Assembly (NCBI GenBank): GCA_965205065.1
Contig: CBDBFT010000001.1
Location: forward strand, 5,681,821 to 5,745,820
DNA: 64,000 nucleotides
Reading direction: 5' to 3'
Source of the DNA: Candidatus Poribacteria bacterium
GTDB lineage: Bacteria; Poribacteria; WGA-4E; WGA-3G
Shown: positions 1,634 through 3,798 of the stretch, in pieces
How the letters are laid out: each line of letters starts with the position of its first letter
Position numbering within the stretch: the first letter of the stretch is position 1
Program-made: the position numbers and the translations under genes
Notes under the pieces: generated by a model
Told to the model about the DNA's origin: nothing
The model's input: only the letters and a program-made list of their open reading frames with translations
The model's database searches: none

Positions 1634-1653
1634 GTGACTATTGAGTCACCAAA
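1634..1653 (-). promoter_or_regulatory. Invariant 20-nt element gtgactattgagtcaccaaa containing the perfect 6-4-6 palindrome GTGACT-ATTG-AGTCAC, copy A (about 185 nt upstream of the viperin start)
   Basis: Identical 20-mer recurs at 3649..3668 upstream of the beta-CASP gene. Flanks are also similar (aaYgtgact...accaaaWWWactt). Confidence 0.5.
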
Positions 1654-1759
1654 ATTACTTTTTGATGCCGCTTGATTTTGTCATCGTTATCACCTCCTTT
1701 TATATGTTGATATTCTACCCGTTTGCATATTGCATATATGGAGTCCACTGCGAACGAAA

Positions 1760-1788
1760 AGGATAGTAATATTTTTCAGATATGTCAA
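1760..1788 (-). promoter_or_regulatory. Candidate sigma70-type promoter of the viperin-kinase operon
   Basis: Minus strand reads TTGACA (1788..1783), 17-nt spacer, TATCCT (1765..1760). It lies just downstream of the hairpin that follows the preceding gene. The -10 is weak. Confidence 0.3.
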
Positions 1789-1813
1789 CTCATGTCAGTT
1801 ATATAGAACGAGA

Positions 1814-1837
1814 TGCTCCGACAAAATCACCGGAGCA
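1814..1837 (-). terminator. Candidate terminator hairpin after the beta-CASP nuclease gene
   Basis: 7-bp stem tgctccg / cggagca with a 10-nt loop, 20 nt after the stop at 1858. On the minus strand it is followed by a moderately U-rich tract (ucucguucuauau). Confidence 0.3.
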
Positions 1838-1857
1838 CTTCTTCAACTTTGCAGTAC

Positions 1858-3480
1858 TTAAGCAGGTTGTCGTAAGTAGTACAAATCAGCAATCTTATGC
1901 TGAAAAAATCGTCCATCTAACGACAAACACCATTGAAAAAAACTTATTACTATTGGTGTGACTGCTTCACTGCCGAACCAGAATGCGGCTAATTCCTTGA
2001 CGTGGAAAGGTCCTTTCTTTTGCATCTTCAGGAGGTGTGTGTAGACTTCAGAGAGAATTCTCTCCAGAGTATGCCTCCTTCCCCTAGCAATACCGATTGG
2101 CTTTTCTATCAAATAGGCCTCGCCGTTTTCAGGAAGTTCCACATCTATACTTGAACACATTTTATGGATAGATTCAGACAACGTTTTGCGCGCCTTTGTC
2201 TTACCGTGCACAAGCAACAGTTTTTCACGCGGTTTAACTTTCTTAACCAGTTCCAATAGTTCTTTACTGTCTGCATGTGCTGAAAGCGAATAGCGTTCCA
2301 CTCTGGATTTGACATCAAAGGGTTCATTATCCAAAAACCAAACTCGGTTTTCGGAGTCTTTCTGCTTTCTAAAATCCTCTAACGCGCGTCCAGAGGTGCC
2401 TTCAGCCTGATAACCGGTAATTGCAATCAGGTTTTTTGGATTTGCGACTAATTGTTTCGCATAGGCAATTGACTTGCCACCGTTCAACATACCTGAAGAT
2501 GCCACAATGCAACAGGGTCTCTCTGCCAAAATATTTTCGGGTTGCTGCCTGCGTGGCACCTCTTTTATTGAATCGGAATTAAAAAGAAACTCACCGTGTT
2601 CTGCCTTACGCCTCAAAGGTCGTTGAAGTTCGGCATGGAATTGGGAGTATATTGAATTAACATCACGCACCATCCCATCAACGTAAACAGGGAAGTCGCG
2701 AATTTCTTTACGTTCGATTGCATCCTTCAAAATTAGAATAACTTCCTGAGCTCGCCCGATAGAGAATACTGGGATTAACACTTTACCATCTGCTGCAATC
2801 GTTTTAGTAACATCCTCAACAAGTCTTTTTTCTTCCTGTTTTCGAGTCACCTCGTGTTGGCGGTTGCCGTAAGTTGCTTCCATCACCATCACATCTGGCT
2901 TGCACCATGTTGGCACATCCACACTCCGAATAGTCAACTGTCTGGTAACAGACACATCACCTGTTATCAAGAGAGTTTCAGACTTTCCCTCAATGTAGAT
3001 CATCGCTGCACCTAAGATATGTCCAGCGCGAATCCATCTGGCTCTTACACCTGGACAGATCTCTATGGGATCTGTCCAGGGCACAGTTACCATGCGTTTC
3101 AATACTACAGCGACATCGTCAAGAGTATAGTGCAGACCGTTATCCGCATCCTTCTCGTCCGGCATTCTACGCGCACTGTCTTCTAATAAGACGCGTGTAA
3201 TCGCTTTCGTTGGAGGGGTGCAGTATATCTTCACACCAGCACGCCAAAGATCTCTCAATACCGGTAGCGCGCCCGTATGGTCTGTATGGGCGTGTGTTAT
3301 AAGGACAGCATCTGGGATGTCTTCTTTATCAAAATCTGGGAAATCAGGCAACCGAGAATCATTCTTATGCTCATGGTTCATTCGGATGCCTGCATCCAGA
3401 AGTATTCTATAATCATCAATTTCAATTAATGTGCTGGAAGCACCAACTTCGTTTGCTCCTCCGAAAAAACGGATTTTCAT
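1858..3480 (-). CDS. Metallo-beta-lactamase fold, beta-CASP family nuclease (RNase J / CPSF73 / SNM1-like) with an unassigned C-terminal extension of about 90 aa
   Basis: MBL motif 2 LITHAHTDHTGALP, MEATYGN, CIVASSGML, and YSLSAHAD plus LLVHG at the beta-CASP/motif C positions. The ORF track starts at 3507, but the ATG at 3480 (MKIRFFGG) is preceded by GGAGA with 6-nt spacing, so 3480 is the likelier start. Confidence 0.85.
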   Translation of the reverse strand: MKIRFFGGANEVGASSTLIEIDDYRILLDAGIRMNHEHKNDSRLPDFPDFDKEDIPDAVLITHAHTDHTGALPVLRDLWRAGVKIYCTPPTKAITRVLLEDSARRMPDEKDADNGLHYTLDDVAVVLKRMVTVPWTDPIEICPGVRARWIRAGHILGAAMIYIEGKSETLLITGDVSVTRQLTIRSVDVPTWCKPDVMVMEATYGNRQHEVTRKQEEKRLVEDVTKTIAADGKVLIPVFSIGRAQEVILILKDAIERKEIRDFPVYVDGMVRDVNSIYSQFHAELQRPLRRKAEHGEFLFNSDSIKEVPRRQQPENILAERPCCIVASSGMLNGGKSIAYAKQLVANPKNLIAITGYQAEGTSGRALEDFRKQKDSENRVWFLDNEPFDVKSRVERYSLSAHADSKELLELVKKVKPREKLLLVHGKTKARKTLSESIHKMCSSIDVELPENGEAYLIEKPIGIARGRRHTLERILSEVYTHLLKMQKKGPFHVKELAAFWFGSEAVTPIVISFFQWCLSLDGRFFQHKIADLYYLRQPA

Positions 3481-3648
3481 AATAATCTCCAATCTCGCAA
3501 TGACCACAGAATACGCCTGCAGTCATGATAGAAACGCTAACTTATAGTGGGCACTTGAGTCCTCAAATGTATAGCGTAGGTTACTGTATGTGTTCGTTGT
3601 TGTTACGGCACACGGAGTGTGTCCACTACTTTAAATAAAAATCAGAAT

Positions 3649-3668
3649 GTGACTATTGAGTCACCAAA
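3649..3668 (-). promoter_or_regulatory. Invariant 20-nt palindromic element, copy B (about 170 nt upstream of the beta-CASP nuclease start)
   Basis: gtgactattgagtcaccaaa, 20/20 identical to 1634..1653. Patchy similarity continues for about 130 nt on the promoter-distal side in both copies. Confidence 0.5.
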
Positions 3669-3798
3669 TAAACTTAATTGAACGCAATATTCGTCGTGAG
3701 GTTAACACAGTTTAAAGAAAACCACAATCAACATCTTATATGTGATAGAGTCTGCTCCAATAAAAAAGATAGTAAAAAATCCACATGACTGTTATTTT

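Follow-up and report, generated by a model that had tools for sequence, protein, structure and literature searches.

A predicted structured RNA leader shared by viperin-kinase operons and CPSF73-like ribonuclease genes in Poribacteria

Why should one 20-nt sequence stand unchanged ahead of both an operon for an antiviral nucleotide synthase and the gene of a ribonuclease? The question is raised by a 64,000-nt stretch of DNA from a Candidatus Poribacteria bacterium (the window, meaning the whole stretch analysed), in which the gene of a beta-CASP ribonuclease (RNase) is followed by an operon for prokaryotic viperin (pVip) and a kinase, all genes of the cluster being on the minus strand. A first-pass annotation had noted an identical 20-mer with a palindromic core upstream of both and had offered two readings of it, an operator for a dimeric DNA-binding regulator or an RNA hairpin in a long shared leader. 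The comparison of related loci presented here favors the RNA. Read on the coding strand, the 20-mer forms a hairpin (H1) that is probably a cis-acting RNA element in a leader common to the beta-CASP and pVip genes, through which the two would be controlled together; to this general claim, co-control included, we attach a probability of roughly 0.6. Any specific mechanism is rated much lower than the general claim.

A hairpin conserved upstream of two kinds of gene

The 20-mer, GTGACTATTGAGTCACCAAA, is exact at 1634-1653 and 3649-3668 of the plus strand. These are its only two matches in the 64-kb window even when 3 mismatches are allowed, as the first-pass annotation had stated for the exact sequence, and 0 of 100 shuffled sequences matched; blastn of the leaders likewise gave no further copy in the window. 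The two copies were compared by local alignment and blastn, a global MAFFT alignment of both intergenic regions having misaligned the 20-mer. In local alignment the identity stretches to 22/23 nt and 26/30 nt, and beyond H1 the similarity runs on patchily for about 40 nt. The patchy homology that had been reported on the promoter-distal side is real and corresponds to a conserved box (box1) at 3735-3779 and 1732-1772. On the coding strand the sequence reads UUUGG-GUGACU-CAAU-AGUCAC followed by a U-rich stretch, that is, a 6-bp stem with a 4-nt loop. The two copies, one ahead of the beta-CASP gene (copy N) and one ahead of pVip (copy V), are as follows:

3649..3668, minus strand: 20-mer of H1 copy N, with the stem-loop GUGACU-CAAU-AGUCAC at 3664..3649, preceded by UUUG and followed by AUUCUGAUUUUUAUUU
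1634..1653, minus strand: 20-mer of H1 copy V, with the stem-loop at 1649..1634, followed by GUUUUCUAUUGG

The end of copy N lies 168 nt from the beta-CASP ATG (3480) and that of copy V 186 nt from the pVip ATG (1447), close to the distances of about 170 and 185 nt first given. Copy N folds with -6.8 kcal/mol and scores 50.7 bits against a covariance model of H1 with its flanks (model R1), and copy V folds with -7.9 kcal/mol, including a short neighboring helix (z = -2.7), and scores 53.7 bits. Just 3' of copy N, a short hairpin region at 3603-3632 (GGACACACUCCGUGUGCC...) matches two sites of an intergenic region about 49 kb away (52918-52947 and 52967-52996) at 90% identity over 30 nt, and may represent another short dispersed element.

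A total of 13 leader copies from 10 Poribacteria genomic contexts carry H1, two independently assembled duplicates being left out. Orthologous hairpins occur in nine loci besides the window, of which L087 and L092 show the same double beta-CASP/pVip arrangement. All 13 copies are on the coding strand, 9 preceding a beta-CASP gene and 4 a pVip gene, and in 10 of them the distance from H1 to the ATG is 168-218 nt. The stem is GUGACU/AGUCAC in both window copies and in L090, and GUGAAU/AUUCAC in L002, L004, both L087 copies, the pVip copy of L092 (L092_V), and L095. The beta-CASP copy of L092 (L092_N) has the stem GUGAAU/AUUCGC with a U·G pair, L089 has GUGAC-CCAAU-GUCAC, and the L093_N copy is degenerate, with an A:U outer pair, a G·U pair, and a UAAU loop; the inner pair of the dyad is altered in L001 and L089. 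Stem position 5 is A:U in eight copies and C:G in three, and L089 is also C:G but with a 1-nt deletion. The loop is CAAU in 12 of the 13 copies. In the 13-sequence alignment 97.4% of the cells of H1 are paired, as against 18-53% with slid partners, three pairs are changed on both sides, and 0 of 500 shuffles reached the observed pairing or covariation score; the segments of 41-46 nt fold with -5 to -8 kcal/mol. The exchange of A:U for C:G, together with the G·U variants, is the stem covariation that the first-pass annotation had proposed to look for in homologous loci. A hairpin of L005, GAGGCT-CAAT-AGCCTC, would have supplied two more compensatory pairs had it been an orthologue of H1; by positional homology it is a different leader hairpin (H4, below), and it was not used as H1 covariation.

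Copies of the 20-mer at many unrelated intergenic sites would have marked it as a dispersed repeat. No such copies were encountered. Model R1 was scanned against 201.5 kb of Poribacteria DNA, the whole window included, and 700 kb of non-Poribacteria beta-CASP loci. In the former it recovered just the 13 known copies (33-63 bits), the next score, of 20.8 bits, belonging to a site that on inspection is not H1, and in the latter nothing; a match at L090 15347 was dismissed for want of a CAAT loop, and none of the 80 metagenome loci retrieved had H1. Within the sampled DNA, therefore, H1 is not a dispersed repeat of the kind of repetitive extragenic palindromes (REP) or miniature inverted-repeat transposable elements (MITE). 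In the related DNA sampled, the 13 copies of H1 all stand 5' of beta-CASP or pVip genes, and the exact 20-mer gave 0 matches in collections of genome, metagenome, and viral contigs, which apparently do not include the source genome. That the two units share a cis module, as first proposed, is borne out by its conservation among relatives, and a chance duplication does not describe it. A functionless remnant of duplication or gene conversion was judged unlikely because the perfect block measures just 20-23 nt within flanks of about 60-80% identity and because H1 is kept, with its pairing, across 10 genomic contexts.

An unrelated 23-nt repeat, GCACAATCTAACAGAATGTGCTA, is both dispersed and tandem in the same DNA. 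In the window it is found at 7333-7355, 7422-7444, 12119-12141, and 38327-38349 and as four tandem copies at 10934-11046; it also occurs in L090 (9788 and 9875), and in the pVip leader of L087 one copy sits as an insertion just 5' of H1 (6863-6885).

Structure of the leaders and the readings that compete to explain it

The leaders in which H1 is embedded are mosaics of about 240 to 400 nt that comprise a conserved 5' box, a small basic open reading frame (ORF), and several hairpins, and they fall into types A, B, and C. RNAalifold was applied to eight type-A leaders, from H1 to the ATG, and to a separate set of seven type-B/C 3' leaders. The type-A consensus has 42 pairs in six helices, with 92.7% of cells paired versus 36-44% with slid partners and 16 pairs changed on both sides versus 2-5 in controls; 0 of 500 shuffles reached the observed values. 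The type-B/C consensus has 22 pairs, five of them changed on both sides, and an outer stem GAUGCG..CGCAUC around two hairpins. One hairpin, H4, is shaped like H1, with a 6-bp stem closed by U-A and a loop of UAAU, CAAU, or UUAU. G·U cells outnumber A·C cells by 41 to 3 in type A and by 17 to 1 in type B/C, and the consensus folding energies of sense versus antisense strands are -26.9 versus -9.8 kcal/mol (type A) and -19.8 versus -9.3 kcal/mol (type B/C). The type-A consensus leaves the Shine-Dalgarno site unsequestered. By these comparative measures the leaders carry conserved, covarying, sense-strand-specific predicted RNA structure. Searches of Rfam 15 gave no relevant match in window positions 1-6000 at E values up to 10 and no match in L092, L087, L093, or L090 at E values up to 0.1. 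Leaders of types A and C (L001 at about 475-500, L002, L004, L095, L093, and L089) have one more conserved hairpin, GUUUAUGAGGUAAAC-CUUUUUGUC, with a run of T; it lies just 3' of the type-A small ORF and is absent from both window copies.

These structures bear directly on the proposal that H1 is a DNA operator, with the dyad GTGAMT-N4-AKTCAC, at which a dimeric factor encoded elsewhere represses or activates both units. The dyad is a perfect 6+6 in most copies (9/13), it is placed between the conserved box1 and the gene, and stem position 5 changes symmetrically, as would be expected of half-sites that co-evolve with their regulator. Both copies in a genome also carry the same variant (C:G/C:G in the window and A:T/A:T in L087 and L092), an agreement that within three genomes is not statistically meaningful. 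A half-site spacer would not typically be asymmetric, however, and the central CAAT is present in 12 of 13 copies in a fixed orientation; the L092_N (ATTCGC) and L093_N copies break the DNA dyad yet pair in RNA through G·U, and the flanking leader is strongly structured in sense-strand RNA. Further, no helix-turn-helix (HTH) or WYL gene is conserved beside the locus in any context examined, which agrees with the earlier remark that no regulator is encoded nearby, and the adjacent 589-aa protein is a predicted alpha-solenoid with no recognizable DNA-binding fold. Regulators of defense systems with palindromic operators do exist in the form of the WYL-type CapW/BrxR proteins, and a 16-nt dyad upstream of a defense operon resembles their operators; H1 differs from these in having no adjacent regulator gene, variants that pair only as RNA, a near-invariant asymmetric center, and RNA structure around it. 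An operator is accordingly the weaker of the two readings first offered, and we regard it as quite unlikely; the RNA hairpin has covariation, G·U variants, a near-invariant asymmetric loop, and sense-strand structure on its side.

A second alternative accepts the hairpin but not its regulatory role. H1 and its U-rich tract could do no more than end the small-ORF transcript, as its 3' terminus or as an intrinsic terminator of low strength, the genes downstream having promoters of their own; what the two units share would then be punctuation in transcription rather than a regulator common to both genes. Both window copies were flagged as terminator-like by a consensus scan, a run of 3-5 T falls within 6 nt of the stem in 12 of 13 copies (interrupted in several), and H1 is always downstream of the small ORF where one exists. 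The same scan, however, gave 6 sites versus 4.4 expected and hence no enrichment, and L095_N is without a T tract. The stem, of only 6 bp with three G·C pairs (0 to 4 in other copies) and -5 to -8 kcal/mol, falls short of the stable GC-rich stem, typically of at least 7 bp, of an intrinsic terminator, whereas the likely genuine terminators at the same loci are 8-bp GC-rich stems. A terminator would also not need a near-invariant loop sequence, and in the window and in L087 alike both copies kept H1 when the small ORF was lost. We therefore consider a terminator unlikely. Attenuators built from a leader peptide and an intrinsic terminator show the same succession of small upstream ORF, hairpin with U-rich run, and gene; the Poribacteria leaders depart from them in the weak 6-bp stem, the conserved loop sequence, and a small ORF that is dispensable, having been lost in four leader copies. 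Because the stop codon of the small ORF lies about 75-135 nt before H1, the position of the ribosome should be unable to act on H1 directly.

The RNA element that we favor has its own difficulties. Among unambiguous orthologues clean A:U to C:G covariation is seen at one stem position only, and the remaining double changes rest on the degenerate L093 copy and the indel-bearing L089 copy. H1 alone is a near-perfect palindrome and does not discriminate between strands (-5.2 versus -5.0 kcal/mol). The RNAalifold structures and the counts made on them come from the same seven to eight related sequences. The core that had been called invariant is indeed 20/20 identical in the window and has its CAAU loop almost throughout, but H1 does not occur throughout: in L093 and L095 the pVip leader has the related H4 in its place, so that H1 is not obligatory for pVip. 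It is possible that a promoter lies between H1, or the hairpin H2 that follows it, and the gene, in which case H1 would belong to the 3' untranslated region of the small-ORF transcript. Finally, the window locus is decaying, with three deletions including one that truncates the kinase, and its present-day function in this genome is uncertain.

Exchangeable leaders, a possible mechanism, and known systems

Leaders of this family precede the genes of the beta-CASP RNase and the operons of pVip and kinase; some genomes also have one 5' of a gene for a B12-binding radical S-adenosylmethionine (rSAM) protein. All of these lie downstream of a gene for a protein of about 590 aa (589 aa in the window). 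In relatives the full unit consists of box1, a strong Shine-Dalgarno site, a small basic ORF, hairpins (H1, H2, and H3 or H4), and the Shine-Dalgarno site of the gene that follows, about 180-220 nt of leader remaining up to the ATG. These ORFs are very basic and 49-57 aa long overall. Those of type A encode about 55 aa with the motif ..DNRANQLNPNNDAYWRSRGH.. (also given as ..NQLNPNNDAYWRSRG..) and usually lie 5' of beta-CASP, and those of type B encode 49-53 aa, are rich in Gly and Lys, and usually lie 5' of pVip. Examples are L001 294-461, L004 5518-5685, L092 5255-5428 and 7565-7714, L090 7569-7718, and L093 7554-7712. Type-B ORFs show an excess of third-position change (e.g., 8/3/17 differences by codon position), consistent with coding, and neither type has a match in Pfam or NCBIfam.

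The leaders are interchangeable between genes. In L087 the leader of a pVip pseudogene is of the beta-CASP type and, by reading of the sequences, resembles the beta-CASP copy from box1 nearly to the ATG; in L005 the small ORF ahead of beta-CASP is type-B-like and the leader is of the H4 type; and in L087 and L089 fragments of these leaders, among them a degenerate relic of H1, accompany the B12-binding rSAM gene. Moreover, the small ORF has been lost in both window leaders and both L087 leaders and is truncated in L002, and H1 and the rest of the leader persist there. Leader exchange and ORF loss with leader retention fit functionally equivalent regulatory cassettes, and it is because leaders interchange between genes and persist after loss of the small ORF that we infer co-regulation: the structured leader is probably regulatory, and its common placement suggests joint control of the two genes. 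Several rearrangements accompany these leaders. The L087 'pVip' (7102-7836) is a pseudogene made of the 3' end of a type-B small ORF joined to about 205 codons of pVip, and it is followed by the B12-binding rSAM gene at 8495-9928. A frameshifted copy of the B12-rSAM gene lies between the 589-aa gene and H1 in L089 (4351-5723). A MITE-like palindromic element, CTGTAGGAGCGAYCTCC...GGAGGTCGCTCCTACAG, is present at window 6984-7049 and at L087 4575-4620, where most of the type-A small ORF has given way to it.

A scheme consistent with these observations can be outlined. The leaders would be transcribed from box1, which would place both genes under the same post-transcriptional control. H1, with its near-invariant UCAAUA loop region and U-rich tract, would be the site of action of a trans-acting factor, which could be an RNA-binding protein or an RNase and would set transcript read-through, processing, or stability. 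As a recognition, processing, or attenuation site, H1 would thereby tie the expression of the RNase and of pVip-kinase together. In a specific version, the CPSF73-like RNase, possibly with the 590-aa protein, would recognize H1 and cleave beside it, regulating its own mRNA and gating the pVip-kinase operon. We see this version as a long shot. If the RNase does act at H1, viperin output would be expected to rise when the enzyme is titrated or inhibited, as during phage infection, and the antiviral nucleotide synthase would stand under a 'guard' circuit of RNA processing.

Parallels exist for parts of this scheme. The 5' untranslated region of Escherichia coli rne (Rfam rne5) is an autoregulatory leader of an RNase gene, and the Poribacteria leaders resemble it as long, multi-hairpin leaders 5' of a ribonuclease gene with individually conserved stem-loops, a likeness that suggests, by analogy, feedback by the encoded RNase. 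They differ in that no Rfam model matches, rne5 included, that the enzyme is a CPSF73-like beta-CASP protein and not RNase E, and that the leaders also precede pVip and B12-rSAM genes. In their position 5' of a coding sequence, fixed orientation, compensatory and G·U pairs, and specific set of genes they are like orphan structured cis-regulatory RNAs and riboswitch candidates; unlike these they have mosaic types A, B, and C and an internal small ORF, and no clear expression platform was found. In metazoans the 3' stem-loop of histone mRNA is cleaved by CPSF73 in a system that depends on SLBP and the U7 small nuclear ribonucleoprotein. That stem-loop also has a 6-bp stem and a conserved 4-nt loop, and here a hairpin of this shape stands beside genes for a CPSF73-family nuclease and a predicted helical-repeat protein; the histone system is eukaryotic and the Poribacteria element is upstream of genes rather than at an mRNA 3' end; the likeness is an analogy only.

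Searches of the literature brought up no described cis-regulatory element of a prokaryotic viperin operon and no report linking pVip to a CPSF73-like RNase. The sequence evidence describes a structured RNA leader, new and specific to this lineage, that links the antiviral viperin operon to CPSF73-like RNase genes, and its covariation is sufficient to seed an RNA family. If the leader co-regulates the two genes, it would point to post-transcriptional control of an antiviral nucleotide synthase and provide a concrete RNA and candidate protein partners that are accessible in vitro although the organisms are uncultured.

The window locus and its neighborhood in Poribacteria

The annotation of a duplicated module can now be refined. 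That a module is shared holds; it did not arise as a simple duplication, and the window has, as judged by alignment with relatives, two decayed copies of the larger unit of box1, small ORF, and multi-hairpin leader, from which the small ORFs were deleted independently. The parts recognized are listed below.

Module N, minus strand:
3735..3779: box1 (TTTTTTACTATCTTTTTTATTGGAGCAGACTCTATCACATATAAG), 90-98% identical to box1 of L092_N, L090_V, and L087
3698..3732: H2' hairpin region (GTTGATTGTGG...GTTAACCTC), which in L090 and L092 sits after the stop codon of the type-B small ORF
3486..3624: 3' part of the beta-CASP leader, homologous to type-A leaders
3607-3624: local hairpin of the beta-CASP leader
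3540-3567: H3 box of the beta-CASP leader, GAGGACUCAAGUGCCC
3500-3522: last helix of the beta-CASP leader
3486-3494: Shine-Dalgarno region of the beta-CASP gene

Module V, minus strand:
1813..1838: GC-rich hairpin GUGCUCCG-N10-CGGAGCAU, 3' of the beta-CASP stop codon, at the start of the module
1760-1788: sigma-70-like site TTGACA-17-TATCCT, a consensus match overlapping box1
1732..1772: box1, 80-83% identical to L092_V and L087_V
1655..1700: strong Shine-Dalgarno site and 9-codon relic MTKSSGIKK* of a type-B small ORF (AAAGGAGGTGATAACGATGACAAAATCAAGCGGCA followed by TCAAAAAGTAA), the corresponding ORFs in L090 and L092 being of 49 aa
1455..1612: 3' part of the pVip leader, with a structure derived from the seven type-B/C leaders
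1584-1612: H2 of the pVip leader
1486-1553: multiloop of the pVip leader, closed by GAUGCG..CGCGUC
1523-1538: H4, GGAU-UUAU-AUCC, within the multiloop
1465-1479: last hairpin of the pVip leader
1455-1463: Shine-Dalgarno site of pVip

Box1, with the sequence TTTTTACTATCYTTTT..GGAGCAGACTCTATCACATATAA, lies in relatives directly 5' of the Shine-Dalgarno site of the small ORF, and the leader may begin there or have its promoter there; no convincing conserved -35/-10 pair was identified in it. The promoter first placed at 1760..1788 does exist as a consensus match, but L092_V does not preserve its spacing and the leaders ahead of beta-CASP have nothing that corresponds to it; it was rejected as a shared promoter. 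The GC-rich hairpin is likely a terminator. Its consensus, AUGCYCCG-N8-10-CGGRGCAU followed by CUCGUUYU, shows compensatory changes and recurs at L087 6700-6730, L092 7410-7436, and L093 9497-9525; it follows beta-CASP in L087 and L092 and the kinase in L093, and therefore appears to travel with the 5' end of the next module.

Around copy V, blastn aligns 215 nt with the pVip leader of L090 at 94% identity, and relative to L090 and L092 there is an internal deletion of about 220 nt that left the Shine-Dalgarno site and the 9-codon relic just 5' of H1. Copy N has a box1 98% identical to that of L090 and is without the Shine-Dalgarno site and small ORF present there. It is a chimera, with a type-B (pVip-type) 5' half, in which positions 63-153 of the leader are 81.5% identical to 243-333 of L090_V (the type-B post-ORF hairpin and H1), and a type-A 3' leader including the H3 box GAGGACUCAAGUGCC. 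Because two separate deletions left the H1 block alone in both, only this block aligns perfectly between the copies, which accounts for both the invariant core and the patchy homology of the first-pass annotation; box1, H1, and the 3' leader are retained in each despite the loss of the small ORFs. The third deletion, of about 70 nt, is internal to the kinase gene (window 1-150, minus strand) and shifts its frame relative to the 205-aa L090 orthologue. The product is 93% identical to the first 152 of the 205 residues of that orthologue, and the C-terminal 30 residues can still be read out of frame.

The genes of the cluster, all on the minus strand, are the following:

3799..5568: gene of the 589-aa protein, 5' of the first module in every locus looked at, no family assigned
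1858..3480: gene of the beta-CASP metallo-beta-lactamase RNase, 540 aa (Pfam Beta-Casp, Lactamase_B, and RMMBL)
551..1447: pVip gene, 298 aa, intact (NCBIfam and PADLOC pVip)
100..561: viperin-associated dTMP-kinase-like gene, 153 aa, shortened, overlapping pVip by 11 nt (PADLOC VakA)

The annotated identities of viperin and beta-CASP nuclease are thus confirmed by NCBIfam and PADLOC for the former and Pfam for the latter. The pVip protein scores 329.6 bits against NCBIfam viperin_w_prok (NF038283; cut-off 180) and is also matched by PADLOC pVip; the score above the family threshold and the adjoining kinase (PADLOC VakA) are what assigns it to pVip with kinase. The start of beta-CASP at the ATG at 3480 is backed by alignment of homologues, and its intergenic region with pVip is 410 nt. 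The nuclease has metallo-beta-lactamase (MBL), beta-CASP, and RMMBL domains and no KH domains. It matches NCBIfam aCPSF1 at 2e-98, below the cut-off, and its nearest PDB matches are 2ycb, 3af5, and FttA 9bct (E about 1e-63 to 1e-68), the nearest solved relatives being archaeal CPSF/FttA, IntS11, Cas14, and CPSF73. Because it scores under the equivalog cut-offs of both aCPSF1 and Cas14 and is without KH domains, its sequence places it in the CPSF73/aCPSF1(FttA)/IntS11-like beta-CASP superfamily and not in the aCPSF1 or Cas14 families proper. It is no obvious defense nuclease; it appears as a CPSF73/aCPSF1-like RNase in kept synteny with the 590-aa protein across Poribacteria.

In protein searches Poribacteria homologues are 55-76% identical for beta-CASP, 70-89% for pVip, and 62-92% for the 589-aa protein, and the few named matches are Poribacteria except for one Gemmatimonadota pVip. 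A look-up of the window's own pVip and beta-CASP proteins gave no record of either. A single-protein beta-CASP search for related loci recovered only one Poribacteria locus, and an alignment-based search of metagenomes gave the 80 loci mentioned above, all at 48% identity or less and none recognizably from Poribacteria. The 589-aa protein has 437 homologues, the sole named one being from Poribacteria, and no match in Pfam, NCBIfam, or PADLOC. Members of the family measure 580-603 aa (window 3799-5568, minus strand; L002 3559-5337; L004 3740-5515; L087 2686-4479; L090 5719-7488; L092 3367-5178; L093 5732-7477), and the gene heads the cluster likewise in L002, L004, L087, L089, L090, L092, L093, and L095. 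Its AlphaFold2 model is an all-alpha solenoid (mean predicted confidence, pLDDT, 82) with no significant fold match in the PDB, the best being karyopherin/HEAT-like at E about 0.04. A predicted helical-repeat protein beside a CPSF73-like nuclease recalls the symplekin and IntS4 scaffolds, though as an analogy only.

Gene order varies among the genomes:

590-aa gene, beta-CASP: L002, L004, and L089, and probably L001 and L005, in which the gene upstream was not identified
590-aa gene, beta-CASP, pVip, (kinase): window, L087, and L092
590-aa gene, pVip, kinase: L090 and L091, L090 being without beta-CASP within 8 kb
590-aa gene, pVip, kinase, beta-CASP: L093 and L094
beta-CASP on the opposite strand, about 4 kb from 590-aa gene, pVip, kinase: L095

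Such permutation (window, L087, and L092 versus L093 and L094, with the beta-CASP gene missing near L090 pVip), together with the chimeric window N leader of type-B 5' and type-A 3' parts, would be expected if H1 were a recombination site at which cassettes of beta-CASP, pVip-kinase, and B12-rSAM are shuffled. No recombinase is linked to the locus, however, and the patchy similarity of copies N and V for about 40 nt beyond H1 places the junction elsewhere and rules out H1 as a precise breakpoint. Homologous recombination between leader repeats of several hundred nucleotides accounts for the permutations and for the L090-type deletion, and we hold a recombination site to be highly improbable. 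As regards the common RNA leader, the interest of these arrangements is that pVip-kinase is no sporadic island gene in Poribacteria but part of a conserved neighborhood (590-aa, beta-CASP, and sometimes B12-rSAM genes) with interchangeable leaders. Many more pVip, beta-CASP, and 590-aa matches, some on contigs of only 4-8 kb, fall on contigs of the same length; because matches for the three proteins share contigs of identical length, this indicates that their adjacency is common. The gene neighborhoods thus depict the nuclease as a lineage-wide gene tied to the 590-aa protein and pVip-kinase as a frequent member of the cluster. In the window, remnants of insertion sequences flank the cluster, at 5983-6931 and 9359-10207 (plus strand). 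One has a DDE_Tnp_4 transposase broken into an HTH ORF and a DDE ORF and is followed by repeats of about 90 nt at 7151-7418, and the other has a DDE_3 transposase.

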